Source: Candidatus Liptonbacteria bacterium
GTDB lineage: Bacteria; Patescibacteriota; Minisyncoccia; UBA6257; 2-01-FULL-56-20
NCBI GenBank assembly: GCA_023244895.1
Contig: JAHFLL010000001.1
Span: 681,802 to 745,801, forward strand
Reading direction: 5' to 3'
DNA length: 64,000 nucleotides
In this document: positions 220 through 35,208 of the stretch, piece after piece
How positions within the stretch are numbered: position 1 is the first letter of the stretch
Layout: each line of letters starts with the position of its first letter
Program-made: the position numbers and the translations under genes
Notes under the pieces: generated by a model
Databases searched by the model: none
What the model saw: only the letters and a program-made list of their open reading frames with translations
What the model was told of the DNA's origin: nothing

Positions 220-3200
220 TTAGGATCCAGACACGTACGAGACGGAGTTGAGGTTGATCGGGGCAACGTTGGTCGGCAGCGAAAGGCTGCTGGTCGGCGT
301 GCCGGATAGACCACCCGTGTATCTCACATCTGTAGCCGCGTTGATGGAAGCTCCCAAGCCCTGAACCACACCGTTCGCACCAGCGAGAGTCTTGGTAGAG
401 TCTACGCGTAGCTTGAAGGAGTATGGCTGACCGGCAGAGATCTGCCAGCCGGCAGTGGTGGTTCCGAACATCCAAGTCTTGGTGCAAGTGTTGGTGCCGT
501 CGCAAGCAGCCGAGGTCGTAGCCGTTACACCAGAGGTGCTGGTTACGTTCACGCCGTTCGCGTCAAGCAAGGTCACACCCGCCAAGAAGGTGGAGATGGA
601 CGGAGCTGTACCGCTGAAGGTTACGGTCAAGGTGTTGAGGTAGGCGTTGTCCGCCGCATCAGCCGTAAAGGTGATGGTGGCGAAGTCGTCCGCAGTCAAC
701 TTGGAGCGGCTAGAAGCCGAACCGATCGCGGCAGAAGAGGCAGTCAGCTTGGTGCGCAATACGGTTAAGGTATTGGCAGTCGCGCCGCCGGAAGCCAGAA
801 CAACCGAGGAAGTAGCGTTAGACGTACTGCCCTTGGCGTTTACGGTTTCCGAGCCCATGTCGTCGTTATCGGTGTCGGTGGAAGTCGCGATCCTGAAGCT
901 GTGTGCGGAGTTATCCGACGCAGCGTTGGAGTTGTAGGTCGCTACATCTCCCTTCAAGATCAAACTGACCGAACCATTCTGAGGGATGGTCAAGTTCACG
1001 CCCGAGAACTTGTAGTAGTAACCAGCACCCGGGTTGGAGCTGGAAGCCGCGGTGTTAGAAGAACCAGCCGTGCCGATCGGGTTAACCAAATCGGTGGACT
1101 TATAGAGCTTCAGATTACCGAAGGAAGGCTTCACAGTTGAGGTCGCAGCTACTACGTCGAAGACGTTCAGGTCGGTGACCTTAATTTCATCCACGTTGGA
1201 AGTCTCCGAAAGCTGGAAGGCAGCCAAGGTGACTCCAGTCGAACCCATTACTACCTGGCCGGTGGCCGGAGTAAGGGAAGAGTTGAGGCCAACTGTTAAG
1301 GTCGCCTGACCAGCTACCGTCACAGCCTGACCAGCGGTGGAGGTGCAAGACACGGCGGTGCCGGTCGAGCCACTGCCAGAGCAGCTGGAAAGAGTGGTGA
1401 TGGTGTTGTTGGTCTGAGAGGTCGCCGAGGACAAAATGTCCGCGTAGACATCCACATAGACGGTCGTACCCTGGGCAACAGTGAACGGAGTACCCGCGAA
1501 GGAGTAGCTACCGTTGTTAGCCAAGGTGGCTTGCGTCTGACCAAACTGAGTGGAACCAATCTTTACCATCAAGTTCTGGAACTGAGCGCCAGCGGCGCCC
1601 ATCAAAACCGTGACGTTAGAGATAGTAACAGACTCCGCGGAAGAGGCAGACAGAGCGTAAGAACCGATCTTGCGCGCCAACGCACCCTTAGCGAAGGTCT
1701 GGGTACCAACTGCGCTGTTCTGAGCTACGGACAATGAAGTCGCGGACAAGGTCAGAGCACTGCCAGTCGCAGAACCGCTTGAGGCGGCTTGGCTGGAAGA
1801 CATGCCCTGCAAGTTGCTGGTATTGCCGGTTAAAGCACCGGTAATAGAGCTGAATGCCGCAGTGGACTGCACGTCACCGACCAAAGACAACACGCGAGTG
1901 GTGTTGGCCGGGACAATGTAGTTGATGTTGGAGCTAGTGTTACCGAAGCAGTTCGAGGCAGTCGAAGTGGCTGCCGAGAAAGCTGTACCGGTACAGGTCG
2001 CAGAGGTGGTCAAGGAGCTTATAGTAGCACCCAACTGACCGCCCGCATCATCCATCATGCGCACATTCTTGATTTCCTGGTCCCAATCTGCACCCAAGGT
2101 GCCGGTCGGAATCAATTGGAAGCCCAAGAACTTTACCTTAACCGCTTCGCCAGCGGCGTAGATGTTGAACTTAGCAAACGTTACATTGGACTGACCCTTC
2201 GCAACATTGCCGGTCGGGGTGTTGGAGGCCAAGGTGACAGTAATCTGTCCCTGGCTGATCGTTACCTGAGTACCGGTGTTGGACTGGGCTCCAATCGGAA
2301 CATTGTACTGAGAGTCAACAGCTAATACATCGTAGGAGTTCAAGATTTCGAACTGGAAGTTATAGCTCGCGGAACCCATAACGTCGGCGTAAACCTGAAC
2401 GTTATTGGAGCCGGTGTTAATCGTTCCAGGGGCCGAAGCCAAATCAAAGTAGGCCGAGCCATCTGCCGCAACCTGCGCCAAGGTAGAACCTACCTGGGTG
2501 CCGTTCACGAATAGCTTGACGTTCTTCAGATCGGACTTGTTGGCCGAACCGATAACCTTGAAGTTGATGCCCTTCAACCACACCTTGGAGTTGCCTCCAG
2601 TGAAGGTCCAGGCACCTACGATTACGTTCTGAGAGCCAGCAGTTACCGAAGTACCAATCGAAGACGAAGCGATGGTTAAGGTCGCGATCGCAGGATTAGA
2701 TACAGTGGTGACTGTCATGGTGTTTCCGTTCAAAGGATAGGAACCGCCAGCGGTGATCGCTGTGCCGGCTACGTCGGTCGCGGAGATATCCGCAGCCGAA
2801 GCAACTCTGAAGGAAATGGTGTTACCCGCGAACAAACCAGTGGCTGGATCTATGGCCAACTCAAAGGTGCGGGTCTGACCGGCGCCGACCGAAAGGCCTA
2901 AGCCGGAGAAGACCAATACGCCACCCGAAAGGGAGTTGTACTGGGCCAATACCTTACCATTTTCGGTCAGGTACGCACCGGAGATAGAACTGTCGGAAAC
3001 AACACCAGCTTTGGTGAACTTGATACCGTTGAAATTCACGGCGCCAGAATTACCAGCGGTTACATTCACGGCCAAAACCGGAATGCGCGCCGCGGAAGTG
3101 GTGCCAGAAATGATAGAACCAGCAACCGGGTTAGAGGCAGCGATGGTCGCTGTCAAACCGGAAGCCGGAACTACTACTGTGCCAGTGCCTGTGCCAGTAC

Positions 3201-3654
3201 CGGTTCCGGTGCCTGTGCCAGTGCCTGTGCCAGTCGAAGTGCCCATCGCCGCGATCTTAGCCCGAGTGATTGCACCAAAGTAGCCGGACGCCGGAGAGAC
3301 TCCGTTCGCCGCTTGCCACTTGGCCAAGGCTGCCTTGGTAGCTGCACCGAAATATTCGGTCTCGTTACCAGGGGAACCAGCACCACTCGCGGATACCTGC
3401 GCGCCATGAGAGTTAAGGAACTGCTGAAGGGCTTTTACTTGCGCTCCCTTCGAACCAAGAGTGAGGTTCATGGTGAAGGAATACGAAGAACCGCCGGTCT
3501 GCGCAGTACCTAACTGCGCCTGCAGTGCCGAAACCTGAGCGAGCAAGGCCGCAATCTGGGCCTGAAGATCAGTGGACGATTGAGCGGATACGCTCGGAAC
3601 TATGGCCAAAACGGTCATAGCGGTAAGCGCTATGGAAACTAATTTTTTGCTCAT
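220..3654 (-). CDS. Giant secreted cell-surface protein (1144 aa). It has an N-terminal signal peptide, a coiled-coil segment, a peptidoglycan-binding-like domain, a (Gly-Thr)n linker, and a long Thr/Ser/Ala/Gly/Val-rich region predicted to be beta-rich. Looks like an S-layer protein or adhesin
   Basis: ORF of 1144 aa; signal peptide MSKKLVSIALTAMTVLAIVPSVSAQS; PG_binding_1-like segment (KGAQVKALQQFLNSHGAQV...GYFGAITRAKI); TGTGTGTGTG linker; low-complexity T/S/G/A-rich body. Confidence 0.85.
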   Translation of the reverse strand: MSKKLVSIALTAMTVLAIVPSVSAQSSTDLQAQIAALLAQVSALQAQLGTAQTGGSSYSFTMNLTLGSKGAQVKALQQFLNSHGAQVSASGAGSPGNETEYFGAATKAALAKWQAANGVSPASGYFGAITRAKIAAMGTSTGTGTGTGTGTGTGTGTGTVVVPASGLTATIAASNPVAGSIISGTTSAARIPVLAVNVTAGNSGAVNFNGIKFTKAGVVSDSSISGAYLTENGKVLAQYNSLSGGVLVFSGLGLSVGAGQTRTFELAIDPATGLFAGNTISFRVASAADISATDVAGTAITAGGSYPLNGNTMTVTTVSNPAIATLTIASSSIGTSVTAGSQNVIVGAWTFTGGNSKVWLKGINFKVIGSANKSDLKNVKLFVNGTQVGSTLAQVAADGSAYFDLASAPGTINTGSNNVQVYADVMGSASYNFQFEILNSYDVLAVDSQYNVPIGAQSNTGTQVTISQGQITVTLASNTPTGNVAKGQSNVTFAKFNIYAAGEAVKVKFLGFQLIPTGTLGADWDQEIKNVRMMDDAGGQLGATISSLTTSATCTGTAFSAATSTASNCFGNTSSNINYIVPANTTRVLSLVGDVQSTAAFSSITGALTGNTSNLQGMSSSQAASSGSATGSALTLSATSLSVAQNSAVGTQTFAKGALARKIGSYALSASSAESVTISNVTVLMGAAGAQFQNLMVKIGSTQFGQTQATLANNGSYSFAGTPFTVAQGTTVYVDVYADILSSATSQTNNTITTLSSCSGSGSTGTAVSCTSTAGQAVTVAGQATLTVGLNSSLTPATGQVVMGSTGVTLAAFQLSETSNVDEIKVTDLNVFDVVAATSTVKPSFGNLKLYKSTDLVNPIGTAGSSNTAASSSNPGAGYYYKFSGVNLTIPQNGSVSLILKGDVATYNSNAASDNSAHSFRIATSTDTDNDDMGSETVNAKGSTSNATSSVVLASGGATANTLTVLRTKLTASSAAIGSASSRSKLTADDFATITFTADAADNAYLNTLTVTFSGTAPSISTFLAGVTLLDANGVNVTSTSGVTATTSAACDGTNTCTKTWMFGTTTAGWQISAGQPYSFKLRVDSTKTLAGANGVVQGLGASINAATDVRYTGGLSGTPTSSLSLPTNVAPINLNSVSYVSGS

Positions 3655-10667: not shown

Positions 10668-11966
10668 TTAGCCTGCGGACTCTACTAATTTTCGGATAGC
10701 TCCGAGCGCCACGTCAACCTGTCTGCGGTCTGTCCCCCGGCCTAAGGTTATGCGTAAGCTGTGTCGGGCGATCTTATCATCCCCAAACATGGCTCGTAGG
10801 ACATGGGATGGTTCCGCCCCGCGCGCGGAACAGGCCGAACCCGTAGAAACCGCGACTCCCTGCATATCCAGGTAGGTCAGCGCCTCCTCGGCTAAAACGC
10901 CCGGTAGATATACATTAATATTATTGGGCAGGCGCGCGTATTTTTCACCACCCCGAACATCCGGACCGTTTAATCTGGCCTTCCTGTTTATTAATACAAT
11001 CTTTTCCCAAAAATAATTTCGTAGTCCGAAGATTCTTTTCGCCTCCTCCTGTTTTATTTTTTCCGAAACACGCACGGCTTCGGCTAGGCCGACAATATTC
11101 GCCACATTTTCCGTCCCGGAGCGCAAGCCGAACTCCTGACCCCCACCGGTTATCTGAGCCTGCAACATGGACCATGGAACAGAAAGCCTACTATCTTGTT
11201 TTGTGCCGCTTGCACCCTGTTTAATGTTGTGTGTTTTGCGTCCCATGATTAGCGCTCCCACCCCCTTCGGGCCATATATCTTGTGCCCGGAGATGGTCAT
11301 AAAATCCACCCCCAGCTCATTCGGGCGGCAATCCAGATACTGCAAGGCCTGGACCGCATCCGTATGGAAAAGCGGGTACGTGCCAGTAGCTCTGAATTTG
11401 GCTATTTCCGCGCCTATTTTAGAGATGGGCTCTATCGTGCCGATTTCGTTATTCGCATACATCACCGATACCAAAACAGTTTTGTCGTTCAATAGCTTTT
11501 TGAGCTCGGGCAGGCTCACTACTCCCTCCTCGTCCACGGGCAATATTTTTAATTCTATGAGCCCCTCCTGCTCCATATCCCGCGTGGTCTTTAAAACCGA
11601 ATCGTGCTCCACTGCCGAGACTATTACCCTCGGCAAGTAGTCCGAATGCTCCGAATGTCTTTTTTCGGATAATTCGGATGCCATTCGGGTCATTCGAGTC
11701 GCTTTTACAATCCCCCGCAAAACCAGATTGTTCGCCTCCGTAGCCGAACTGGTAAAAATCACGTCCCGGAAATCCACTTCCAGCATTTTCGCAATCGCCT
11801 CCCTGGACTTATCTATCGCCCCCATCGCTTCCTGACCGAAGGAGTGAAGTGAGCCGGGATTGCCGAAGATGTCGCTAAAATACGGCCGCATAGCCTTAAA
11901 CACCCCTTCGTCCAGAGGCGTCGTCGCGGCGTAGTCCAAATATATTCTCTTATTAGTGCCAATCAT
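10668..11966 (-). CDS. Cysteine desulfurase (class-V aminotransferase, NifS/IscS-like). It carries an about 25-aa insertion encoded by a repeat element
   Basis: PLP-lysine motif ISGHKIYGPKGVGAL; overall NifS/IscS-like layout; atypical segment RMTRMASELSEKRHSEHSDYL encoded by the ATTCGG-rich repeat. Confidence 0.85.
   Translation of the reverse strand: MIGTNKRIYLDYAATTPLDEGVFKAMRPYFSDIFGNPGSLHSFGQEAMGAIDKSREAIAKMLEVDFRDVIFTSSATEANNLVLRGIVKATRMTRMASELSEKRHSEHSDYLPRVIVSAVEHDSVLKTTRDMEQEGLIELKILPVDEEGVVSLPELKKLLNDKTVLVSVMYANNEIGTIEPISKIGAEIAKFRATGTYPLFHTDAVQALQYLDCRPNELGVDFMTISGHKIYGPKGVGALIMGRKTHNIKQGASGTKQDSRLSVPWSMLQAQITGGGQEFGLRSGTENVANIVGLAEAVRVSEKIKQEEAKRIFGLRNYFWEKIVLINRKARLNGPDVRGGEKYARLPNNINVYLPGVLAEEALTYLDMQGVAVSTGSACSARGAEPSHVLRAMFGDDKIARHSLRITLGRGTDRRQVDVALGAIRKLVESAG
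11635..11706. repeat. In-frame copy of the ATTCGG-rich RPE-like repeat element inside the cysteine desulfurase CDS. It consists of an inverted half plus a direct half
   Basis: gtccgaatgctccgaatgtcttttttcggataattcggatgccattcgggtcattcgagtcgctttt closely matches the intergenic copies at 19739, 25021 and 47587-47677. Confidence 0.65.
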
Positions 11967-12150
11967 TAATTAAATATCTACACGTACTTAATCCGTCATC
12001 TAAAAGGAATTATGAATTAAGAATTGTGAATTAGGCAAATTCTAAGATCTCTTAAACCCACTACCGAGAAATAACGAGCTTAAGAGATTGGGCAGAGGCG
12101 GCGCATAAGACGCCACGTACCCAATATGCTTGACGGGAGAGCTCTCGCCG

Positions 12151-12714
12151 CTACAGGAAGATGATCAGTGTGCAGACCACCACCCAGACGAGCAGTACGA
12201 CGAAGTGCGTGAACTGCTCCTCCTTGTCAGGCTCATCGGCTTCGTACTCCCGAACCTTCCCTCCATCGTGAATGTCCCTTTCCTCCTTCAGAACCCGCCT
12301 GGGGATGCAGTTCTTGTAGTAGGAGTAGGTCCAGATCACGAAACCCACGAGTAGGAGGGGCACGCCCACCAGAAACTGAATCAGGTCGGTGCCGATCACC
12401 TTCCAGGCGATGAGGATCATAGTGAACTGCCCCACGCCGGTCTTGCTGAACTCGTCGGCCTGCTTGGTAAGCGCGCCGAGCGAGCCGTTCACAGCCTCGC
12501 CCACTTCCTTGCCGAGGCCGACCCACTTGCCGTAGGTCTCGATCCTGCGTTTGAGGTTGTCCTGCTCCACCGTCGCGATCTGCGAAGCGGTGAGTTGGCT
12601 CTTGGGAACAGAGACCATCTCCTCCTGGCCCGGTGCGGTCTGGGCCAGTACCGGCTGGACAAACCCAGCCAGAACTACGAACGCGACGAGGACGAACAGC
12701 AGTCTGCGCATCAC
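12151..12714 (-). CDS. GC-rich orphan ORF. Predicted exported protein with a signal peptide, a roughly 75-aa soluble domain and two C-terminal TM helices
   Basis: 187 aa; N-terminus MMRRLLFVLVAFVVLAGFVQPVLAQ; C-terminal hydrophobic helices; local GC clearly above the flanks. Confidence 0.55.
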   Translation of the reverse strand: MMRRLLFVLVAFVVLAGFVQPVLAQTAPGQEEMVSVPKSQLTASQIATVEQDNLKRRIETYGKWVGLGKEVGEAVNGSLGALTKQADEFSKTGVGQFTMILIAWKVIGTDLIQFLVGVPLLLVGFVIWTYSYYKNCIPRRVLKEERDIHDGGKVREYEADEPDKEEQFTHFVVLLVWVVVCTLIIFL

Positions 12715-12882
12715 ACTCTCCCTTGTTTGAGCCCAGCTTGAAAACTGGGCTGTTGGCTACGGCCCTCAAGAACAATTAATCAAAGATTGATTCCTGAAGG
12801 CCATAGCCACCCTTATCAAAGAACGGCCATAATATAAAATATGAATATTAATATGTCAATTTTTCTGCTTGATTCAGACTAG

Positions 12883-13437
12883 TTATGACTTCCCAAACCT
12901 GACCTCCTTCATCTCCCCCGTCTCCCGGTCGGGAATGAGAAACGCACCCTTCTCTCTATATATATCATATAGCCTCTTAGTCAGTTCTACATCTTTGAGA
13001 CAATATTCCTTCAGCTCCTCAAATCTGCGTTCGTCGTACATCTTAATGGCTTCTGAGCCATGCCCGGTTTTAGCCTCCCCTAAATTCGCCTCCGCGAGGC
13101 GGCTTAAACTGATACGCCGTCCGGTAACAAACTCTATTTTATCCAGCAGATCAACCCGTTCCTTCCCAAACAAATCTAGGCCCACTTTCAGCCTATTAAA
13201 ATGATAGTTCAAGACCGGAATATCGTAGCGATTACTACTGAAGCCAACCAGCGTGTCTGCCCTGTTAAAGTGTTCCGCCGCCAGCACCAACTCATTCTCA
13301 TTAAAATAAGAATATTTATCGGTTTCATATTCATAGATACCCACGCCAGAAATTTTAAGGCGCGCGAAATTATTCCAACCCACATCCGGGTCGGTAAAAA
13401 AGTTGGCTGTCTCAATATCAAATACTAAAGTTTTCAT
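12883..13437 (-). CDS. DEDDy-type 3'-5' exonuclease (DnaQ / YprB / RNase_H_2-like)
   Basis: Exo I motif LVFDIETANF; Exo II motif GFSSNRYDIPVL; Exo III motif YCLKDVELTKRLY; 184 aa. Confidence 0.75.
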   Translation of the reverse strand: MKTLVFDIETANFFTDPDVGWNNFARLKISGVGIYEYETDKYSYFNENELVLAAEHFNRADTLVGFSSNRYDIPVLNYHFNRLKVGLDLFGKERVDLLDKIEFVTGRRISLSRLAEANLGEAKTGHGSEAIKMYDERRFEELKEYCLKDVELTKRLYDIYREKGAFLIPDRETGEMKEVRFGKS

Positions 13438-13479
13438 TTGTATTCCCTGTTCTGTCTTTTACTACCTACTGCTAACTAA

Positions 13480-14040
13480 TCAGTGCGTGTATCTGTCCGC
13501 CACATTAGATGCCGCGTAGCTGTCTGGCTTGGTGATTGCTTCAAAATTGTAAGCGCGGATCATACCGACAACTTCTTGGATCAAGCTCTTGGTCGCTCCC
13601 CCCTCGCCCACGTCCGCGTGGATTTCAAACTCCCATTCCGGAATATTTTCCGCGCCTGGCCCGCTCGCGGGAATAAGATTGCGCAACTCCCCTAGAACCT
13701 GCTGGCCCAACTCTAAAGAAAGCATCACTTCCTTAATAATCCTGTCCCGCAAGGTGTGGAACTTGCCGTAATCTAAATGGCGCCAGAAGTACCTACCCCC
13801 GCTGCCTATGCGATGGATGACCACCGCAGTCACAAAATCAACCTTGTCTTCCGAATTCTTCTGGGAATCGGTGCCAATGGTTATCTTGTACTTGCGGAGT
13901 GGCTCCGCTCGCATAAAACCAACCAAATCCTCCACGAGCTCGGGGACGGTTCGCTTTAGGCCATATGCGCTATTAAACTTAGTATCTTCGGACACAATAT
14001 CCATACCAAAGCACTCTACTCCAAACCTAAATCCTGTCAA
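13480..14040 (-). CDS. Hypothetical protein with a probable RNase H-like (RuvC / RNase HI-like) fold
   Basis: 186 aa; ITIGTDSQ followed by VDFVTAVVIH (beta1-beta2 pattern with an acidic residue); C-terminal PEWEFEIHADVGEGG resembles the RNase HI WEWVKGHAGH region. The assignment is tentative. Confidence 0.45.
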   Translation of the reverse strand: MTGFRFGVECFGMDIVSEDTKFNSAYGLKRTVPELVEDLVGFMRAEPLRKYKITIGTDSQKNSEDKVDFVTAVVIHRIGSGGRYFWRHLDYGKFHTLRDRIIKEVMLSLELGQQVLGELRNLIPASGPGAENIPEWEFEIHADVGEGGATKSLIQEVVGMIRAYNFEAITKPDSYAASNVADRYTH

Positions 14041-14050
14041 AAAAATTGAA

Positions 14051-14075
14051 GCCCGGACGCTGTTCTGTCCGGGCT
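14051..14075 (-). terminator. Terminator hairpin after the small ORF at 14100-14456
   Basis: gcccggacgctgttctgtccgggc; on the minus strand it is followed by a T-run (plus-strand caaaaaaa at 14040-14047). Confidence 0.6.
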
Positions 14076-14099
14076 AAAGCCTTCTCTGTCCGCCGTCTC

Positions 14100-14456
14100 C
14101 TAGGACGGCTTACCAGACGGCAACGCGATGGACTCGCCGTATGCCCGCACCGTCTCCATGGCGGAGACCGTCCCGTCCTGGCGGCGCAGCTCCTCAGCCG
14201 TGTCCGAGGCCAGCCGGGCCGTGACCCGTTCCGCGTCCTCGATCACTCCCGAAATTCTGCCCACGAGGGGGGAGATGGCCAGCAGTTGACGCATGACCCT
14301 CTCGGCCTCCACCTGGCGCTCCAGGAGCTGCTTCTTGTCGTTGTCCACCACAGCGAAGAGTTGAGCGTGGATTCTCGACAAGGAAGCGTTCAGTGTTTCC
14401 ACCGCCTCGGTCAATGTGACCTGTCTTGACTCTGCCACAGCAGACCTCCTCCCCAA
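14100..14456 (-). CDS. GC-rich orphan small ORF (118 aa), predicted all-alpha, no recognisable domain
   Basis: Open frame in a high-GC segment with AT-rich promoter and terminator spacers on both sides. Confidence 0.45.
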   Translation of the reverse strand: MGRRSAVAESRQVTLTEAVETLNASLSRIHAQLFAVVDNDKKQLLERQVEAERVMRQLLAISPLVGRISGVIEDAERVTARLASDTAEELRRQDGTVSAMETVRAYGESIALPSGKPS

Positions 14457-14479
14457 CCGAGAAACCGGTCAGGCTGGCC

Positions 14480-14560
14480 CAATCATATCAATAGAAATAG
14501 ATACGTCAATTCCAAAACCATATAAAAAACGCAACGCCCGTGGCCACGATGGCAACGAGC
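14480..14560. terminator. AT-rich spacer with a near-palindromic hairpin (gcaacgcccgtggccacgatggcaacg) flanked by an A-run and a T-run. Looks like a bidirectional terminator
   Basis: aaaaaacgcaacgcccgtggccacgatggcaacgagcgttatttttt. Confidence 0.5.
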
Positions 14561-14561
14561 G

Positions 14562-14843
14562 TTATTTTTTGGTCTCATCTTTCGCTTGCCCTGCCCGCGC
14601 GATAGCCAGAGCGGACACGAGCGAGAGGTGAAGGTGCGCGAGAGTGCGCAGGGAGCCATACAGAGCGAGCTCGGCCTGGGCGGCGGCTTCCAGCACAGAG
14701 AGCTCTTCGGGAGAGACTCCCCGCTCCAGAGCATTGCGCACTTCCTGAATCAATCCCAAGACGCGCCGACGTGACTCGGCCGCCTTTTGTCGTTCGTCAA
14801 ACAGCCTCGCTGGGTCCATAAGTCCCCCTTCCCCTGCACTCAA
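14562..14843 (-). CDS. GC-rich orphan small ORF (93 aa), predicted helical
   Basis: Open frame in a high-GC segment bounded by AT-rich spacers. Confidence 0.45.
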   Translation of the reverse strand: MSAGEGGLMDPARLFDERQKAAESRRRVLGLIQEVRNALERGVSPEELSVLEAAAQAELALYGSLRTLAHLHLSLVSALAIARAGQAKDETKK

Positions 14844-14964
14844 CTAACACCTTCCAGTCATAAAAATCAAGACAGTACTAATATATATATCCTTAAAATG
14901 ACGAACGCTCGCGATGCCCAATGCATCGCGAGCGCTACCCTACTACGCCACGCATAGACGCCTC

Positions 14965-15207
14965 CTACGCCCGGGACGACCAACGAAGTTCAAACTCCTC
15001 TCGGGCTGCCTTCAGGTTGTCCATAGCTTCGGCAAGCCCGTCAAGCGAATCCGCGCAGGAGTTGCTTGAGGTCACGAGCTTGTCGACCGGAGGCTCACTG
15101 CCCTTTGGTCTTCCGGCCCATTCCCGATATCTGGCGGCTAGGCCCTTCGTTTTCACGGTTAGCGCCGCAACCAGATCCAGGAATGCGATTCCGTTTGGGG
15201 TGTCCAT
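14965..15207 (-). CDS. GC-rich orphan small ORF (80 aa)
   Basis: Open frame; downstream hairpin cgctcgcgatgcccaatgcatcgcgagcg at about 14905-14935; upstream promoter-like TTTACG...TATAGT. Confidence 0.4.
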   Translation of the reverse strand: MDTPNGIAFLDLVAALTVKTKGLAARYREWAGRPKGSEPPVDKLVTSSNSCADSLDGLAEAMDNLKAAREEFELRWSSRA

Positions 15208-15301
15208 GGCTCACCTCCCTTCTCCCAAGACGGTTCCTGCCCTTACTATAGCAAATCGCGGGTGCGCCGAAAAATATCGTAAATTCGCCTGCTTATAGAA
15301 A

Positions 15302-16648
15302 TTATTTGTTGTGGATTAGACCCAAAATTTCTTCTGTCTTCTGTTGCATAAGCTCTCTACTTTTGGCTTCTAAGTTTAAACGCAACATCCGTTCGCCGGT
15401 ATTAGAAAATCTCAGGTTCGCGCGCCAATCTGGATATTCTATTGAAATCCCATCCATATTGTTCATGCGTGCATCCGCGTAACGTCTTTCTAGCCTGGCC
15501 AGGACATTCTCTGAGTCAAATATATCCTTGAGGTAAGTATTTATCTCTCCCGAGATAAAATATTTTTGGAAAAGAGGCTCAAATAGCTCGCTAACCTTCC
15601 GGCCCGATTCCGAAACTATCTGAGATATGGTTAGGAATGGGATAAGACCGTTGTCCGCGTAAAAATAGTCGCGGAAGTAGTAGTGTCCGCTCATCTCTCC
15701 TCCGAAAACCGCGTCCTCTTTGCGCATACGTTCTTTAATGAATGTGTGACCTGCTTTATTTTCTATCGTACTGCCGCCTGCCGCCCCAACCAGATCTATG
15801 GTCGCTCGCGTTAAACGCAAGTCGCTCACCACCCTTGCGCCAGGATTCTTTTTCGCGAAATATTCTCCCAGAAAAGCGGTAATGTAATAGCCGGGAATGT
15901 AACGACCATTCTCGTCAAAAAGGAAGAATCTGTCCGCGTCCGCATCCCAAGCTACCCCAAAATCCGGTTTTTCTTTTTTTACCAGCTCTTCTGTCTCCAC
16001 CCTGTTCTGTTCCTGCAATGGATCGGGCTGGCCCTTAGGAAAACTGCCATCCATTTCTTCATTTAAGGGAATTATCTGAAACGGCAGATTAGCATTGCGA
16101 ATGTTTCGCAGCACTGGACCATTCATTCCGTTGATAACTATCCGCAAGGGCTTAAGCTTAGAAATATCAATAAATTCCAGGCACTTCTTTAAATAATCCG
16201 ACATAATTTCCTTGCCGCTTACCTGGCCCGCTATTTCCGCCTTATGTGCGTAGCCACCTTCCACCAACTTCTTTATATCGGACAGGCCAGAATCGGAAGA
16301 GATGGCCACTGCGTGGGCTCGCACCATTTTGATGCCGTTATATTCCCTTTTGTCGTGCGAGGCGGTTATACTCATGCCCCCATCCACCGGATATGCTCCA
16401 GCGGCAAAATAGAGCATGTCTGTAGTAATCACCCCGATGTCTATCACATTCACTCCATGGTCCATAAAACCCTGGGCGGCAGCACGACACAAAGCTGGAC
16501 CAGACAATCTCACGTCCCGTCCCAAAACCACCACTTTGGGCGAATACATTTTGCTGTATGCCTGAGCAATTGCATATACAGCCTTCTCGTCTATGTCCTC
16601 CGGATAGATGCCTCTTATATCGTATGCCTTGAATATGGCTGGATTCAT
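15302..16648 (-). CDS. Phosphomannomutase/phosphoglucomutase (alpha-D-phosphohexomutase family)
   Basis: 448 aa; active-site serine loop SITASHDKREYNGIK (TASHNP-type); four-domain phosphohexomutase layout. Confidence 0.85.
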   Translation of the reverse strand: MNPAIFKAYDIRGIYPEDIDEKAVYAIAQAYSKMYSPKVVVLGRDVRLSGPALCRAAAQGFMDHGVNVIDIGVITTDMLYFAAGAYPVDGGMSITASHDKREYNGIKMVRAHAVAISSDSGLSDIKKLVEGGYAHKAEIAGQVSGKEIMSDYLKKCLEFIDISKLKPLRIVINGMNGPVLRNIRNANLPFQIIPLNEEMDGSFPKGQPDPLQEQNRVETEELVKKEKPDFGVAWDADADRFFLFDENGRYIPGYYITAFLGEYFAKKNPGARVVSDLRLTRATIDLVGAAGGSTIENKAGHTFIKERMRKEDAVFGGEMSGHYYFRDYFYADNGLIPFLTISQIVSESGRKVSELFEPLFQKYFISGEINTYLKDIFDSENVLARLERRYADARMNNMDGISIEYPDWRANLRFSNTGERMLRLNLEAKSRELMQQKTEEILGLIHNK

Positions 16649-25020: not shown

Positions 25021-25064
25021 AATTCGGGGCATTCGGATGGAATTTGTAGTATTCGGGTCGCTTT
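25021..25064. repeat. Copy of the ATTCGG-rich repeat (aattcggggcattcggatggaatttgtagtattcgggtcgcttt) between rpsO and the NYN gene
   Basis: Direct sequence match to the other copies. Confidence 0.7.
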
Positions 25065-25335
25065 ACTTCTTCAAATCCAGCTTCTTGATCAGCTTTTCAT
25101 AATCCGCCGGCTTCTTCTTGCGTAAGTAGTCTAAAAGCTTTCTGCGCTGGCTGACCATCTTCAAAAGTCCCCGACGGGAGTGATTATCCTTGGGGTTTTT
25201 CTTGAGATGCTTACTTAACTCCTCTATCTGACGGGTAAGTGTGGCAACCTGCACGTTGGCCGAGCCAGTATCTTTGTCGTGGACTCCGTGTTCCGAAGAA
25301 ATTTTTGTTTTTACTCTTTTAGTTAACATTGACAT
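25063..25335 (-). CDS. rpsO: 30S ribosomal protein S15
   Basis: [50 protein letters not shown] matches the S15 signature. The likely start is the internal MSMLTKR, not the ORF-track start at 25392. Confidence 0.93.
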
Positions 25336-25397
25336 AAGAATAACACCTTTTCGTATATATTGCAAATAAGACCCAGTCAGATCATCAGCCAAGGCAT

Positions 25398-25506: not shown

Positions 25507-25770
25507 CTAGTCCCCTGGAGAGCGGGACCATGTGTCCCAAGCTGACGAGAAGAGCATCACGCCAGCCACGAGCAGACCCGCGACGCAGATACCCTTCGTC
25601 GGGGCAAGGGGCACGAGCAACCACGAGGCGGCCGCGAAGACCAGCCTCCAGGCAGCCTTCTTCGGGGTCGGAACCTTCGGCCTCATTATCCCTCCGAGGG
25701 AGCCCGCTTCGGCAGTCGCCCATGCGAAGGCTCCTACCGTTCCCAACAGCACCAACTCGCAAACCATCAT
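25507..25770 (-). CDS. GC-rich orphan small membrane protein (87 aa, 2-3 TM helices)
   Basis: Hydrophobic ORF in a roughly 330-bp high-GC segment, bounded by AT-rich spacers and a hairpin at 25471-25502. Confidence 0.45.
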   Translation of the reverse strand: MMVCELVLLGTVGAFAWATAEAGSLGGIMRPKVPTPKKAAWRLVFAAASWLLVPLAPTKGICVAGLLVAGVMLFSSAWDTWSRSPGD

Positions 25771-25886: not shown

Positions 25887-26804
25887 ATGGGGTTAATGTC
25901 TAATCTGAAGGAGCTGGTACAAGATTATCTGAACTACCTGGAGATAGAAAAGGGGCGCTCCCCTCGCACCCGCGAGAACTACGAGCACTATCTCGCGGAC
26001 TTTATGGCCTACGCCAAAATCTCCTCCCCCAAAGACATTACCGACCGCCTGGTGCGCGAATATCGCTTGAATCTCGCACGGCGGGATATCAAAAAAATCA
26101 GCCAGAACTACTACACCATCGCTCTGCGCAACTTTCTAAAATATCTGGCACGGCGGGACGTTGTCTCTCTCCAGCCGGATAAAATTGAGCTGGCGAAAGT
26201 TTCCCGCGCGCAAATAGAAATATTGGAATATCAGGATTTAGAAAGGCTGCTCCAGGCGCCCCAGGGCGGAGACTTGCGCTCTCTGCGGGATAAGGCGATT
26301 TTGGAAATGCTTTTTTCAACCGGCCTGCGCTTGGCGGAACTGTGCTCTCTGGAGCGATATCTGAATTTGGAGCGGGGAGAATTTACGGTGCGGGGCAAGG
26401 GCGATAAGTTGCGGGTGGTTTTCTTATCCGACCGCGCCAAAAAAGCTATTAAGCAATACCTGGACAAGCGCACCGACGCGGAGCCGTATCTCTTCGTGAG
26501 TCTTTCTAAAATTGCCAAGGGCTCCAAAAAGGAGCCGAAGGTGCTGGGCAGAATAACCCCCCGGGCGGTGGAGCGGGCGGTGGAGCACTGGTCCAAGGTG
26601 GCGGGCATTCCCAAGCATATTCATCCCCACCAGCTACGACACAGCTTCGCGACCGATCTTTTAATGAACGGGGCGGACCTACGCTCCGTGCAAGAGCTCC
26701 TGGGTCATGCCAATATTTCTACTACTCAAATCTACACCCATCTAACCAACAAGGAACTTAAAGAGATCCACGAGGCCTTCCATGGCCAAAGGAGGAAGAA
26801 GTAA
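25887..26804 (+). CDS. Tyrosine site-specific recombinase of the XerC/XerD family
   Basis: C-terminal catalytic region HQLRHSFATDLLMNGADLRSVQELLGHANISTTQIYTH (R...H-x-x-R...Y); N-terminal SAM-like domain; extended -10 tgtggtagaat upstream. Confidence 0.9.
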   Translation: MGLMSNLKELVQDYLNYLEIEKGRSPRTRENYEHYLADFMAYAKISSPKDITDRLVREYRLNLARRDIKKISQNYYTIALRNFLKYLARRDVVSLQPDKIELAKVSRAQIEILEYQDLERLLQAPQGGDLRSLRDKAILEMLFSTGLRLAELCSLERYLNLERGEFTVRGKGDKLRVVFLSDRAKKAIKQYLDKRTDAEPYLFVSLSKIAKGSKKEPKVLGRITPRAVERAVEHWSKVAGIPKHIHPHQLRHSFATDLLMNGADLRSVQELLGHANISTTQIYTHLTNKELKEIHEAFHGQRRKK

Positions 26805-29618: not shown

Positions 29619-31145
29619 CTACAGATTTTTTACGGTTTGTATCAAGCCTGCAATTGAGTTTTTTAACTCAATATCCGTATAATTAAAACTCTGCATCGTT
29701 TTATTTTCAGGATGATGCGTTTTATTTCTTATGAATGTTGGCAAGGTAACATCTATTTCTCCCTGGGACACTCCTCCGTACTCGGGATTCCACTTTTTAG
29801 TGGCTGCTATTTTTGTTTGTAAATAATCCTTCTCAAACACGGTTTGCTTACCCCTGCTATCGGCATCTGATTGATCAGTGGCCTTACTGATGAAAAGTTC
29901 GTGCAAATAACCATATAGCTCATCGTGAAATTCTATCGTGGGCATATCGTAAGCAAAATAATTAATTTCTCCCCAAGATGGGCTCCAAGAAGGGAAAAGC
30001 CCCCATCCTTTAGATCTTGCATCCTCAATCTTGATCTTATTATTCACGTCTCTAGTAAATAGCAGGAGCGTGGCATTCTGGGAAATGGCGCCCTTAAACA
30101 AATAGGGTGAGTGGGTAGAAACAATTATTTGTTTACTTTTCGATTCTTCAAGTAATAACTCCAACAGCTTTTCTTGTGCTTTGGGGTGAAGATGTAGTTC
30201 TGGTTCGTCAATTAAATAAACAATGCTGCCTTTTGAAGCTCCTGCTATGTTTTTTAGTATCAAAAGAGTCAATATTATCTCTACGCCAGAACCTAAATCC
30301 CTGACATTAATTTGAGACAAGGTATTTTCATCTCGTAAAGCGAAAAAGGCCGCGGAGAAAGGATGTAGAATATTTAAAAGTTCAATTTTAATTTTCTCAA
30401 ATTCGTCTTTTCCAAAAAACTCTTTTAACTCTTTAGTGGTCTTTTGGCTAAAACTCTTATTTGCAATCGCATCAACATTTTTAAAATATTCCCCTGCAAT
30501 ATTCTGAGAAATCATATTTATATTCTCATCTGTTAAATTCTTAACAAATGTCCAATTCAGATCATCACAGATTTTTTCGAAAGTTGTTTTATAGTTTCCA
30601 GTAGTAATTTGTCTTGTCCTATTTTTATCGAAAAAGAATATATTCAGTTCGTCGCTATCGTTGATTCTCGATTTGGAAAATATTTTATCTCTCCCATCAA
30701 TCTCTTTCCCCTGCGAACCATCTCCTTTTATATAATTGGCTTCTGTAATAAAGGAGTTATTTATTTGAAAAGGACTAGATAACAAATTTCCTCTTTCCTT
30801 GGTATCCCTACTCTTGGCCTTAAAAGAAACGCCCTTTGCTTTAAAACTCCAATCCTTATAAAAATCAATTCCCGAACCACAACCGAACTCATCACTCTCA
30901 GCTTCGACAAGTATCTCTTTTTTGAAATCAAAGAAATCGTTAATGCTTAATTTATTTTCCGCGGAAAAACTATTAAGCGTGAGATAATTAACTGCTTCAA
31001 GGACAGTAGTTTTTCCATTTCCATTCTCTCCAATGAGAATATTTAGACCGCTTCCACGATTTCCATTTGGAACATTAAAACTAATCGGTTCATTTTCAAA
31101 ACATCTATAGTTTTGAATCTTTAATTTTTTTATGAATATGGCCAT
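29619..31145 (-). CDS. AAA_21/AAA_15-type ABC-like ATPase. It has an OLD/RecF-like N-terminal ATPase head and a C-terminal roughly 150-aa domain of unknown type. Candidate defence ATPase
   Basis: N-terminus IKKLKIQNYRCF; Walker A motif GENGNGKTT; Walker B / D-loop motif VYLIDEPELHLHP...STHSPYLF; gene sits in an AT-rich island. Confidence 0.75.
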   Translation of the reverse strand: MAIFIKKLKIQNYRCFENEPISFNVPNGNRGSGLNILIGENGNGKTTVLEAVNYLTLNSFSAENKLSINDFFDFKKEILVEAESDEFGCGSGIDFYKDWSFKAKGVSFKAKSRDTKERGNLLSSPFQINNSFITEANYIKGDGSQGKEIDGRDKIFSKSRINDSDELNIFFFDKNRTRQITTGNYKTTFEKICDDLNWTFVKNLTDENINMISQNIAGEYFKNVDAIANKSFSQKTTKELKEFFGKDEFEKIKIELLNILHPFSAAFFALRDENTLSQINVRDLGSGVEIILTLLILKNIAGASKGSIVYLIDEPELHLHPKAQEKLLELLLEESKSKQIIVSTHSPYLFKGAISQNATLLLFTRDVNNKIKIEDARSKGWGLFPSWSPSWGEINYFAYDMPTIEFHDELYGYLHELFISKATDQSDADSRGKQTVFEKDYLQTKIAATKKWNPEYGGVSQGEIDVTLPTFIRNKTHHPENKTMQSFNYTDIELKNSIAGLIQTVKNL

Positions 31146-31165
31146 GCATTTAAATAAATTGCAAG

Positions 31166-31663
31166 CTATTTAGCCATTTCGCATTTACCAGAAGATACTA
31201 TCGCTCCCGTTCCGAGTGTCGCGATATCAACAAATTCTCCTTTATCGCCTAAGGCATCTCCAGTGACAACCTTGAACATCATTGCTTGACCTTGCAATGG
31301 AGTAAATTGTGTAAATTCTCCAGAAATGTGTACCTCAACTGGATATGAATCACATCCTTTAGTATCACACCTAAAATAGGTTCCGCTCTCAGTTCCATAA
31401 TCTACGAAATAATAAGTTGCTGGAGTTGAAGCCGTACAACTACCCCCACCACAATCAAACCGACTTGTCGGAAAACAAGAAAGCTCGGCGATATCTGCCA
31501 TTGCGGAATGTTGTGAGGATTCTTCATATGCGATCCTCAATGACTCGGTGGGCGGGATGATTACAGTTGTCGTTTGAACCTTTTCTTTATTTCCAAAAGC
31601 AATATAGGAAAAAATACCCAATAGAATTACAAGCATGCCAATAATTAAATTTTTCTTTTCCAT
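31166..31663 (-). CDS. Small exported Cys-rich protein (165 aa; N-terminal TM or signal sequence, 8 Cys)
   Basis: N-terminus MEKKNLIIGMLVILLGIFSYIAFG; downstream domain with CFPTSRFDCGGGSC...CDTKGCDS...GKCE. Confidence 0.55.
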   Translation of the reverse strand: MEKKNLIIGMLVILLGIFSYIAFGNKEKVQTTTVIIPPTESLRIAYEESSQHSAMADIAELSCFPTSRFDCGGGSCTASTPATYYFVDYGTESGTYFRCDTKGCDSYPVEVHISGEFTQFTPLQGQAMMFKVVTGDALGDKGEFVDIATLGTGAIVSSGKCEMAK

Positions 31664-31907
31664 ATGTTTGAAAATGTCCTTATTTACTTGGGTTCGAACT
31701 TGGAAATCTGGCGGAGAGGAAGGACGCTAAGCTATTCGAACGCACTCCAGTTCCTATTGTAGCCCCGCCGGATTGTTTGGCAAATATGGGGTCATTAAGG
31801 ATTATAGCCCTCTTTCGCTTTTCTAGTTTATGTAGCAATAAATTGTATCCTTTGCGTGAACCTTTTTGAGACGAACTGACACGCCCGGACATAATTTTCT
31901 GCGACGA

Positions 31908-34900
31908 TTATTCTAATTTCAACATCTCCTTTATCTCTAGCACGCACCGCGCCAAATCGTTTTGGAGTTGGTACACCCAAAATCGTTTGACTCGCCATCC
32001 GTGCATGATGAGATGCTGGTCTCGCTTCAAATCCGACAGTAAGCGGCCTCCGTCAATGTCGCGATGCCACATCTCACCGTCAATCTCAATATCAATCGGG
32101 ATTTCCGAATCAAGGACGGCGAGATCAAGGCGATATTGATATAGCGGGTACTGCGAGACGGTTCTGATACCTTCCCGCGCGAGGGCGTCATACAAAACTT
32201 CCTCCCATGGTGACTCAAATTTTCCTCCACTCTTGTTTTTGTTTTCCGGCTCCAGCTCCTCGACATACTGCACGAACTCTGAAAGGTGCGAGATGCCGGA
32301 TTGGGCGCAAGCTACCCTGTCGCCGACAATGTGCAACTCCGCCCTTGCACGGGTAATCGCGACATTAAACAGGTTTACCGTGCTCCCTAAAAATCCTAGT
32401 GAGCGTTGTTGAATTTTACGCGACACAACCGGAGAGAAAATCATTATGTCGCGTTCGTCTCCTTGATATTTATGCGCGGTATCAACCGTAAAATCCAGCT
32501 TCCGCAACTCCGCCGCGTCTATTTTTTGTTCTACCAAATCTCTGATTTTATTCGCTTGCTCTCGAAACGGCGTAACGACGCCAAGTGATACAGAGTAGTC
32601 GTCGCCGTGGGCGGAAATCCTGCCGATGATTTCTCCAATCAATACAACAATCGCCTTCGCCTCTTCCAGATTGTATGCGCTTCCGGCAGATGGCCGGACA
32701 ACCTCACCGACGACATTGTGCCATGTGAGAGCGTCGGGGTGTCCCGCACCGCGCAATCTACGATAATCCGTCCAGACGCTCAACTTGCCACCATAAAATT
32801 TCTTATTGGAAAAACCGATAATTTCGGCGCGGCTGCGGTAGTGTTCGAGCAAGTGAATGAATTTTGCCCCGGTTCCCACAACGCTTCGTGCAAGCTCAAA
32901 GAGCGAGTTTATGCTGTAAAGAAAACGTTGGTCGTCGGTTGAGGTTAGACTAATCTGCCGTTGTAACTGTTGATCGTCCACCCGATGCAAAAGCGAGATG
33001 TGCGTAAGCTGATTTGGATCGCCAACAATAACGGCTCGTTTCGCGCGATAAAGTAGTGGAATCGCGGACGCGATGTCGCACTGGGAGGCTTCATCAATAA
33101 TCACAACATCAACGGCTCCTGCGCTCAACGGAAGCGCATGACGGACAGATAGATTTGTAACTGCCATCGCCGGAAACGCTTTTACTACGCTCTTAAACAT
33201 TCTCTTGCGCTCATTTCTCAGTTCCTCCGCGAGCTCACCTCCTGTTACGTCGCCCTCCAGTCGGCGCACGATACTCACATAATCCGCAATATCGCGTCGT
33301 TCCTTGGGGCCGAGCGATTTTAAGCGACGTTTCATTAGCGCATCAACATATCTAACGCTAATGTCTATCGCGCGTTCTTTACTTTTTGTGATTCGCTCCC
33401 GTAAAACCTCTACTCGCGCTTCATTCTCGTTCTCTCGCACAATTCCCAAAAGCTCCGATTGATTATCAATCCATTTTTTTAATGCACGGCAAATCGTCAA
33501 AAGCTCGCGACAGGCATGGATAGAATTAAGCGAGAGGGGGATATCTTCAATCGGCGCAAGCGCGAGTAAAGATTTTGCCGTTTCTAAAACTCGCTTTTCC
33601 AGCGTGGAACCAAAAAACGCGAGAATGCGCGAGATAAAACTAGGCCCTTCGTCAACTTCTTTTACCAAACGACTCAACGAAATAAGAGAGGCATAAAACT
33701 CCTGTTTCCCCTCGATTTTTTGGTACGAATCGAGATTGCGAGAAATTGACGAGGGCAATTCCGCTCTAACAGATTCAAGCGTGACATCAAGACGACTTAT
33801 TCGATTCCTGCGGGCAAGGATGCGGAACAGCGATTGCTGTGCCTCTTTTTCTTCTGAGCGCACTAATTCAAGTTCCTTTTTGTACTCGCTGATTTCTCGC
33901 TCTAATGACTGGTTGTTGTAGCTTGAGGCACGTTCAATCGCCGACAAGAGCGCTTCCGCAAATTCAATCTCGCGTTCTTTCTGTCCGTATTTCAGAATGA
34001 CCGGCTCGGACTGAAGCCTCAATAATCGTTCGATAACAACATCAACCGCTTTGTGATTTTTACTTCCGAACAAGACGCTTTCATTACGAAGTAGTGCGTT
34101 AGCAATAATATTGAGAACAATTTGCGACTTTCCGGTTCCGGGCGGGCCGGTAATGACGCTAACCGTGTTGTTAAAAGCACTTTTTACCGCGCCTCGCTGT
34201 TCGTCATTCAATCCGGTTATTTCCAGCAATCCTTCACCATTATCCTCTTTAACTTCTGCGTTTCTATCAAGAATTACGCGCCATACATCATTAGGAACGG
34301 TCGTGTCTCGTAATTCGCTCAATTCTTGTTCTAGCCCACCAGTATATTTTGAATCTGCGCTCCGAAAAATAACGCCGAGAGGGAAAACGCCGCTCTCTGC
34401 TTTTAGTTCCGTTGTCTTTCCGCCAAGAATATCTTTTGAGAACGGAACCTCTTGTGGTAGAAGTTCGGCGAACGCACCCAAAATAATTTTGAGGTTCTGC
34501 CCCCTGTTTTTTTCATCGTCCCACGACTCTAAAACTGCTTCGGCTATTTGCTTTCTTTCCTCAACGCTCGTTAATAAACTTTTGTCTGTAAGAAAAGCAG
34601 AGTTGATTCTCGGTCTATCCGATTGCAAAATGAAAGCGTATCCGGTTTCTGTTTGAATAAGATCTATTCCAAAAATTAGAATGGGTTGAATGATCTGACC
34701 CGACCATCCTCGCCGCGATTGTCCAATTTGTTTTATGTGGCAAGGAAAGCCGTAGAAATACGAAAGCGGACTGCGACTCCATCGGGGACCACTGATGAAC
34801 GCTTGGATTTTTTCATTCTGCCCCTCAAATTCTAGCTTTTCTTTGCCGGACGCAATCCATTCTTTTTTCATCGTAGGCACCTGTAAAAACTCCACCCCCT

Positions 34901-35096: not shown

Positions 35097-35121
35097 AATT
35101 ACGAGCGAAAGTTCCTATTAG

Positions 35122-35208
35122 CGGAGAGGGAGGGAGTCGAACCCTCGAAGCCGGTTAAGGCTTACGCGCTTTCCAAGCGCGCGCACTAGGCCACTATGCG
35201 ACCTCTCC
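35122..35208 (-). tRNA. tRNA-Ser (anticodon GGA), a type II tRNA with a long variable arm
   Basis: Minus-strand sequence GGAGAGGTCGCATAGTGGCCTAGTGCGCGCGCTTGGAAAGCGCGTAAGCCTTAACCGGCTTCGAGGGTTCGACTCCCTCCCTCTCCG: 7-bp acceptor stem, anticodon loop TTGGAAA, T-loop TTCGACT, discriminator G, no encoded CCA. Confidence 0.85.

Follow-up and report, generated by a model that had tools for sequence, protein, structure and literature searches.

Between a cysteine desulfurase gene (10668-11966, minus strand) and a phosphohexomutase gene (PMM; 15302-16648, minus strand) on contig JAHFLL010000001.1 of a Candidatus Liptonbacteria bacterium (positions 681,802 to 745,801; this whole stretch of 64,000 nucleotides is referred to below as the window), six minus-strand open reading frames (ORFs) probably form a composite of two unrelated layers, i.e., a core pair of nuclease genes (encoding an RNase H-like protein of the YkuK/DUF458 family and a DEDDy exonuclease, hereafter exo) and accessory, small GC-rich units, the two not being partners in defence. 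The nuclease pair is under strong purifying selection and, as judged from sequence comparison, is a vertically inherited core pair rather than an accessory one. The host is a tiny groundwater bacterium of the Paceibacterota (candidate phyla radiation (CPR)/Patescibacteria). The six consecutive minus-strand ORFs that a preliminary description of this DNA had listed are all present and all matched by public gene calls on a single contig of 840,672 bp, from which the gene starts were taken:

12151-12711, minus strand: ORF1, 186 aa, signal-peptide/transmembrane protein
12883-13437, minus strand: DEDDy exonuclease (exo), 184 aa
13480-14004, minus strand: YkuK/DUF458 RNase H-like protein, 174 aa from ATG
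14100-14438, minus strand: ORF4, 112 aa, GTG start, helical protein
14562-14819, minus strand: ORF5, 85 aa
14965-15207, minus strand: ORF6, 80 aa, helical orphan

Conservation and likely role of the nuclease pair

The window genome was compared with DNA of relatives (L-numbered loci such as L002, L007, L018 and L019), including a synteny set of one genome per species that comprised 80 Paceibacterota loci (GTDB species genomes). The exo gene was located directly downstream of the DUF458 gene, on the same strand, in 77 of these 80 species genomes, with a median gap of 54 bp (42 bp in the window genome), and most of the 80 loci displayed the same block (i.e., RecA-HTH_25-FtsK-(PMM)-DUF458-exo-cysteine desulfurase-HtrA-ClpB). 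The pair was kept even with different flanks, e.g., in Jorgensenbacteria loci. On metagenome contigs it was present in 36 of 54 evaluable loci, and the loci without it were nearly all distant DUF458 copies (≤55% identity), three being partial C-terminal matches only. Contigs encoding proteins at least 90% identical to the DUF458 protein had a neighbourhood like that of the window genome, and a metagenome scan for close relatives gave none beyond two that were already in the set.

At the nucleases the closest relative is L002, with 96.5% protein identity for DUF458 and 95% for exo, and the ratio of non-synonymous to synonymous divergence (dN/dS) was 0.03-0.06 for DUF458 and 0.04 for exo. The GC content of both genes (0.516 for DUF458 and 0.445 for exo) is ordinary compared to the window genes of at least 150 aa, which average 0.485 ± 0.043 for total GC and 0.547 ± 0.088 for GC at the third codon position (GC3), with a GC of 0.48 for the window. 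Since the two genes are adjacent, occupy the same place in 77 of 80 genomes and show ordinary composition, the earlier picture of a single accessory island built around a nuclease pair is contradicted.

The DUF458 protein matched PF04308 with an E-value of 1.3e-43 (148.8 bits, cut-off 25), bearing out its earlier designation as RNase H-like. This match was full-length (residues 35-185 of the 186-aa ORF aligning with profile positions 2-144 of 145), although the length of 186 aa given at first did not hold: the public call is 174 aa from an ATG, and the TTG start of the longer version is unlikely because it overlaps the promoter-like -35 element. The product falls in a protein cluster named 'ribonuclease H-like YkuK family protein', in which a member of 90% identity bears the label Candidatus Paceibacterota, and has 1677 homologues, with 55-65% identity across Liptonbacteria, Jorgensenbacteria and Brennerbacteria. 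Moreover, D46, E92, D131 and D170 were invariant in 16 diverse DUF458 sequences; following Majorek et al. and the secondary structure of the model, these carboxylates were assigned to beta1, alpha1, beta4 and the C-terminal helix (D/E/D/D), this last helix having a low predicted local distance difference test score (pLDDT). The AlphaFold2 model had a pLDDT of 82 and its structural neighbours were all weak; many or most of them were RNase H-fold nucleases (Endonuclease V, Argonaute PIWI, reverse transcriptase-RNase H, NurA and UvrC), with unrelated folds (YopH phosphatases and a de novo design) interleaved. A PDB sequence search with DUF458 yielded no match. Majorek et al. (2014, PMC3985635) placed YkuK in the RNase H1-like endonuclease clade, with its function unassigned, and we found no YkuK/DUF458 member with a solved structure or known substrate. 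The protein examined here resembles the rest of the family (PF04308, COG1978) in its single domain of ~170 aa and its invariant D-E-D-D set, and differs in its fixed place beside a DEDDy exonuclease throughout the Paceibacteria. A literature search limited to the terms YkuK and DUF458 retrieved no description of this pairing.

The exo protein scored above the Pfam cut-offs for both PF13482 RNase_H_2 (7e-9, 36.2 bits, cut-off 22) and PF10108 (27.4 bits, cut-off 24). Since D7, E9, D72, Y145 and D149 were invariant in 15 relatives of 37-65% identity, its DEDDy motifs (Exo I DxE, Exo II D and Exo III Yx3D) are intact, in agreement with its first description as a YprB/DnaQ-like exonuclease. It also matched phrog_403 'DNA polymerase exonuclease subunit' (3.4e-16), and the nearest solved sequence was that of T7 DNA polymerase (N-terminal residues 22-122, 1.8e-4), a segment that we take to be the exonuclease region of that enzyme; a PDB search with the single exo sequence gave no match. 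The invariant Exo I-III motifs are shared with YprB-like/PolB-exo-like stand-alone DEDDy exonucleases (PF13482, PF10108, phrog_403), and the window protein is a lone 184-aa domain with no polymerase or helicase attached and with predicted exonuclease activity.

Most likely, the pair does housekeeping work on DNA or RNA:DNA, one protein as an endonuclease and the other as a 3'-5' exonuclease, the substrate and the cooperation being proposed from their adjacency. We infer this role because YkuK belongs to the RNase H1 clade, its catalytic set is invariant, and exo is kin to a phage DNA-polymerase exonuclease. Specifically, both genes would be co-transcribed from one promoter, and an RNase H1-like endonucleolytic cut by YkuK would be followed by 3'-end trimming by the small PolB/PolA-exo-like DEDDy exonuclease, in the service of DNA repair, replication or primer processing. 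The alternative of a nucleic acid- or RNA-processing module, which had been raised for the entire locus, is compatible with the data for the nuclease pair, but not with those for the small ORFs. Both nucleases are members of known families, and it is their conserved pairing that, together with the turnover in the GC-rich slots described below, is worth following: a near-universal YkuK-DEDDy pair in minimal-genome Paceibacteria makes a sensible target for replication, repair or RNA-processing biochemistry.

The gene upstream of DUF458 varies. It is of the alpha-D-phosphohexomutase type in the window genome, L002 and L019, while L007-L012 carry an inverted 483-aa phosphohexomutase paralogue of 31% identity (L007 7883-9334). 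In many Paceibacteria (loci L022-L094) the phosphohexomutase position is taken by an ORF of ~260 aa that has a DxDGTL motif and looks HAD-like by eye; this would be a case of non-orthologous displacement if that ORF encodes a phosphomannomutase.

Composition, flanks and distribution of the small ORFs

The ORF1, ORF4, ORF5 and ORF6 loci are the strongest GC outliers in the whole 64-kb window, with GC contents of 0.597, 0.637, 0.612 and 0.593 and GC3 values of 0.83, 0.81, 0.65 and 0.65, respectively, so that the GC-richness attributed to them earlier is confirmed against the profile of the window genes. In the called frames GC at the second codon position (GC2) was lowest for all four, and GC3 was highest for three, the first position (GC1) being highest in ORF5. 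The small GC-rich ORFs are supported as compositionally foreign, putatively stand-alone units, at least two of which are strain-variable. Their GC3 excess is not simply a transient mark of recent import, since the ORF4 family holds a GC of 0.60-0.64 across four lineages.

Stretches of 1-2 kb that lie 0.15-0.22 above the locus GC were also seen upstream of DUF458 in L027 (3961-5910), L041 (1951-3270) and L083 (4111-5160), the one in L027 including a 337-aa ORF with a GC3 of 0.84.

Promoters and terminators were identified as consensus and hairpin matches in the DNA sequence only, and the following elements flank the ORFs:

12047-12123, minus strand: pair of stem-loops after ORF1, both lacking a T-run, the stem of one being 19 bp long
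12831-12859, minus strand: promoter-like site of ORF1, TTGACA-17-TATATT, 11/12 matches
14013-14040, minus strand: promoter-like site of the nuclease pair, TTGACA-16-TAGAGT, within a block conserved with L002, L007 and L008
14050-14075, minus strand: ORF4 terminator-like hairpin and T-run, exactly where the alignments of the window genome with L002 and with L007 resume
14445-14510, minus strand: promoter-like site (TTGACG-16-TATGAT with TG, at 14509-14482), hairpin in the 5' untranslated region (5'UTR) and ribosome-binding site (RBS) of the ORF4 slot
14511-14895, minus strand: ORF5 cassette, with AT-rich leader, ORF5 and terminator-like hairpin (14548-14530)
14530-14548, minus strand: ORF5 terminator-like hairpin with T-run
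14904-14936, minus strand: ORF6-slot terminator-like hairpin with a 14-bp stem and T-run, conserved in L002 and L018
15208-15301, minus strand: spacer beyond the phosphohexomutase stop, with an extended -10 (TGcTATAGT, 15253-15245), 5'UTR and RBS GGGAGGTG of the ORF6 slot

The scan returned eight promoter-like sites versus 3.4 ± 1.6 expected, and the three best were those upstream of ORF1, ORF4 and DUF458. Terminator-like hairpins were overall not above chance (six versus 4.8 expected), while the stem-loops downstream of ORF1 were unusually stable (fold z-score of -3.4, with none of 200 shuffles as stable). RBS and start codons were in place for the called small ORFs. In the ORF6 slot, the alignment indicates that the -10 and RBS are kept in the window genome, L002, L018 and L019, with another coding sequence (CDS) following in the latter two; the stem of the hairpin differs in sequence in L019 with pairing kept, as read from the alignment and unscored. 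The claim that each small ORF has its own promoter-like and terminator-like spacer thus stands in part: promoter-like sequences precede ORF1, ORF4 and ORF6 (for the latter an extended -10) and hairpins follow all four, but no promoter-like site was detected for ORF5 at the scan threshold and the ORF1 hairpins lack a T-run.

Downstream of the ORF4 promoter, the 5'UTR at 14445-14481 contains a small hairpin (ACCGgtttctCGGT), and the L007 counterpart (GGCCGacgctttCGGCC) can form a stem too, from different bases. Judging by this sequence, the hairpin may be a regulatory element.

ORF1 encodes a signal peptide and transmembrane helices. It was first described as secreted, but the product is membrane-anchored rather than simply secreted. 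Its family counts ~31 homologues of 176-199 aa, with the motif YGKWVGLGKEVGxAVN and a confident structure model; members occur singly and scattered, both in CPR contexts that are unrelated to one another and on a 148-kb contig resembling a phage or plasmid. ORF1 is the only one of the small ORFs whose family has phage homologues. Specifically, it matched two PHROGs (phrog_33832 at 1.9e-10), had homologues on 12 IMG/VR contigs (seven of 100-365 kb), and showed a fold match in BFVD to uncharacterised phage proteins (1.5e-10). At this site ORF1 is absent from L002, L007 and L019, and in L007-L012 exo is followed directly by the cysteine desulfurase gene. Together, this supports ORF1 as a phage-shared membrane protein that was probably acquired horizontally. 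The genes of its family are GC-richer than the host locus in four of six chromosomal or contig contexts (the window genome, L016, L112 and L114, and not L013 or L014). A GC-rich phage donor was considered for ORF1 and rejected in view of the AT-rich viral homologues that were found (GC 0.31-0.50).

The ORF5 cassette is a clean insertion of ~385 bp, with the terminator of ORF6 on one side and the promoter of ORF4 on the other; L002 has 21 bp at this point. No homologue of ORF5 was found among 5.8 billion proteins, and no DNA similarity was detected elsewhere in the DNA compared. ORF5 is a genome-specific orphan insertion, and the cassette is probably not a structured RNA, since its fold z-score versus shuffles was only -1.6.

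For ORF6, an orthologue of 81% identity lies at the same position in L002, with a dN/dS of 0.46; no Pfam, PHROG, PADLOC or PDB match was obtained. The W-A-G motif, the 80-aa helical product and an FtsK-type neighbour had brought to mind a WXG100/ESAT-6 protein, an assignment that was rejected (no Pfam family at E ≤ 1, and the neighbour being canonical FtsK). A search of 1.84 billion cluster representatives yielded just three relatives of ORF4, of 87% (L018), 53% (L019) and 41% (L007) identity, all GC-rich and all directly upstream of DUF458, and the dN/dS of ORF4 was 0.26-0.31. Both ORF4 and ORF6 are protein-coding but weakly constrained and fast-evolving (dN/dS 0.26-0.46), and within the sub-lineage they keep their position instead of being recent acquisitions.

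PDB sequence searches with the small ORFs yielded only coiled-coil noise, scans of viral contigs gave no relatives of ORF4, ORF5 or ORF6 (nor of an orphan near 48 kb in the window, see below), and phage and plasmid DNA records contained no match to the DNA of the locus. The notion of horizontally acquired or variable cassettes can be retained for small ORFs only, and fully for just ORF1 and ORF5, which are absent at the site in close relatives; it does not extend to the nucleases, and ORF4 and ORF6, like the nuclease pair, are conserved in position, with no sign of recent arrival.

Apparent turnover within putative expression slots

Slots, and the presence or absence of the small ORFs, were mapped with blastn and alignments. 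The ORF4 slot of the window genome and that of L002 are similar at their borders and not in between. The promoter and 5'UTR, which are kept in L007 as well, were 89.6% identical (z-score of 8.4 versus shuffles) and the terminator with the next promoter 69% (z 8.0), while the CDS was at 51.9% (z 0.0). The L002 slot protein resembles ORF4 less than do its counterparts in L019 and L007, which are more distant relatives, and a comparison of ORF4 with this 110-aa protein remained marginal (hidden Markov model E-value of 4.8e-4 in a database of ~100 sequences; hhalign probability 3.6%). Likewise, the window genome, L002, L018 and L019 share the extended -10, RBS, first ~8 codons and terminator hairpin of the slot that follows PMM, while the body of the CDS belongs to the ORF6 family in the first two and to a different family of 78-88 aa in the last two. 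Homology among slot occupants was tried for ORF6 and ORF4 against the L018_88 family and for ORF4 against ORF5, and was rejected (hhalign ≤1.1%). In L002, an additional GC-rich orphan sits between DUF458 and exo, and another two separate RecA from the HTH gene; the window genome has just short spacers at these points.

Synonymous divergence of ORF4 and ORF6 was 0.25-0.30, versus 0.53-0.76 for the nucleases in the same genome pairs. Moreover, the PMM proteins of the window genome and L002 are only 69% identical, with saturated synonymous sites, against the 96.5% and 95% of DUF458 and exo. Since divergence between both genomes is mosaic, recombination has probably occurred within the synteny block. 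The GC3, synonymous divergence and mosaic data would all agree with recombination by way of the conserved flanks, perhaps accompanied by GC-biased conversion.

In the second layer as we picture it, small GC-rich stand-alone units (promoter, RBS, short ORF and hairpin) would occupy the spacers around the pair. ORF4 and ORF6 would be lineage-restricted helical proteins in conserved expression slots, the CDS turning over while the flanks are kept, most likely by homologous recombination through those flanks, and the small genes would constitute accessory cargo resembling phage morons. That Paceibacteria chromosomes in general harbour conserved expression slots, made up of promoter, RBS, a few initial codons and terminator, in core-block spacers, in which short high-GC3 CDSs are swapped or hyper-diverged even if inherited in place, is a tentative extension that we hold to be rather unlikely. 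If true, it would point to recombination acting on a pool of micro-genes (e.g., flank-mediated allelic exchange plus GC-biased gene conversion) in ultra-small symbiotic bacteria, instead of one-off horizontal transfer. At this locus, fast-turning GC-rich micro-genes do sit in the spacers of a core synteny block of a reduced genome; if such slot turnover is general, it would be informative on the ways in which tiny genomes gain new small proteins and try them out.

Known systems offer partial parallels. In allelic replacement loci with conserved flanks, hypervariable genes of the pherotype or immunity type are under balancing selection. The ORF4 slot is alike in its sharp borders between flanks of ~70-90% identity and a CDS at chance level, and in its discordant divergence (L002 being closest at the nucleases and most divergent in the ORF4 slot), but ORF4 and ORF6 differ in having no known function, secretion signal or partner gene. 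Phage morons are independent promoter-gene-terminator units that spread by horizontal transfer (PMC3594210). The small ORFs are like them in their hairpin flanks and, except for ORF5, promoter-like sites, in their foreign composition and, for ORF1, in phage homologues, as well as in the insertion between genes that are adjacent in relatives (ORF5, ORF1 and a 709-bp insert in L002); they differ by lying in a housekeeping chromosomal block instead of a prophage, and ORF4 and ORF6 also differ in being inherited in place over substantial divergence instead of being recent additions. With integron gene cassettes the small ORFs share their arrangement as single-ORF units in a one-strand row with strain-variable content, but they have their own promoter-like sites (none detected for ORF5) and hairpins unrelated in sequence. 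No attC-like repeat is shared at the cassette ends and no integron integrase adjoins the array, the only tyrosine recombinase in the window (25887-26804) being located ~10 kb from the small ORFs.

Several observations weigh against the two-layer composite. In L002, the 709-bp insert, which contains a transmembrane ORF, separates DUF458 from exo, so co-transcription of both cannot be obligatory, and the choice between DNA and RNA as substrate, like the cooperation of the enzymes, is read from adjacency. No promoter-like site precedes ORF5 at the scan threshold, making the case for expression of this predicted gene weaker. Around the cassettes there are no flanking direct or inverted repeats, target-site duplications, integrase or transposase, but only short matches at chance level. 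The ORF4 GC3 excess is kept across lineages whose DUF458 identity has dropped to 83%, a poor fit to simple recent import from a GC-rich donor. Finally, throughout the sub-lineage the ORF4-family genes always have DUF458 directly downstream of them, and this might indicate a functional link.

Taken further, this last point would make the ORF4 family, along with similar small helical ORFs of other lineages, a functional partner of the YkuK-exo pair, e.g., an inhibitor, specificity factor or regulator, and an arms race or a change of targets would lie behind its fast evolution. In addition to the position of the family directly upstream of DUF458 in the window genome, L018, L019 and L007, many other Paceibacteria loci have a helical ORF of 74-137 aa located 77-350 bp upstream of DUF458, one family of which spans L018, L019, L024, L026 and L021. 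We nevertheless deem such a partnership improbable: a promoter-like site of its own precedes ORF4, and a terminator-like hairpin lies ahead of the DUF458 promoter; ORF4 identity is down at 41-53% in lineages where that of YkuK is 83% or more (the L007 DUF458 protein falls in the 90% cluster of the window protein), whereas a tight partner of the extremely conserved YkuK would be expected to be conserved; in many lineages that position holds a HAD-type PMM or is empty; and the slot families lack detectable mutual homology. Even less credible is that the GC-rich segments are non-coding, i.e., structured RNAs or spurious ORFs of GC-rich DNA. Several frames indeed give long ORFs (e.g., 14046-14429 on the plus strand and 12233-12775 on the minus strand), ORF5 is without homologue, and the units are flanked by strong hairpins. 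However, the called frames show coding-type codon-position GC and have RBS and start codons in place, the dN/dS of ORF4 and ORF6 is below 1, ORF1 can be modelled with confidence and has 31 protein homologues that share conserved motifs, and the ORF5 cassette is no more stably folded than its shuffles. Structured RNAs were no longer considered after Rfam returned only a single sRNA match at chance level (E 0.58) for the 11.5-16 kb region.

Defence reading and other loci in the window

The preliminary description had also suggested a defence or counter-defence locus, in which the nucleases and small proteins would have been acquired horizontally as one anti-phage or anti-defence module. This fits the presence of two predicted nucleases, the foreign composition and strain variability of the adjoining small ORFs, and the PHROG relatives of ORF1, exo and DUF458. 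Nevertheless, PADLOC-DB 2.0 gave no model at E ≤ 0.1 and NCBIfam gave no match for any of the six proteins. The PADLOC result is meaningful, since the same library strongly detects an island at 29619-35096 in the same window, which served as a positive control (NsnB 8.5e-26, GajA 2.3e-24, PtuA 3.7e-24 and MkoC 1.1e-64; overall e-24 to e-65 for its GajA/PtuA-like and MkoC/Hhe-like proteins). Moreover, the pair is syntenic within a housekeeping block in 77 of 80 species genomes, combines a dN/dS of 0.03-0.06 with ordinary GC, and the small ORFs vary independently of it. The defence reading is thus largely refuted by distribution, and we consider it extremely unlikely, leaving the composite of a core nuclease pair and accessory units as the preferred interpretation. 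With this false lead removed, attention moves to the AT-rich island at 29.6-35.1 kb, which is the real defence-like island of the window.

This island (29619-35096; GC 0.34-0.40) lies beside a tRNA-Ser gene (35121-35208). It encodes a 508-aa ABC/OLD-type ATPase (PADLOC NsnB 8.5e-26; GajA/PtuA/AriA-like at e-23 to e-24), two orphans of 165 and 70 aa, and a 1062-aa superfamily 1 helicase with a C-terminal REase_MTES_1575/DUF559 nuclease (MkoC 1.1e-64, Hhe 3e-29).

Two further GC-rich orphans were observed outside the interval. At 48044-48496, just upstream of groES (47676-47966), a 150-aa orphan (GC 0.63, GC3 0.74) with an N-terminal hydrophobic helix had no Pfam, PHROG or PADLOC match and no viral relative. 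At 25507-25770, a transmembrane-like 87-aa orphan (GC 0.64, GC3 0.77) is situated between rpsO (25063-25392) and the XerC/D-type recombinase gene (25887-26804); its coding strand is ambiguous, a plus-strand frame being of similar GC3, and L112 has only ~139 bp between the S15 and recombinase genes. Near the start of the window (220-3654), a 1144-aa ORF has a peptidoglycan-binding domain (PF01471) as its only match and an unusual codon-position pattern, with a GC2 of 0.55 that exceeds its GC1 of 0.47; its product is likely to be a large surface protein of repetitive or low-complexity sequence.

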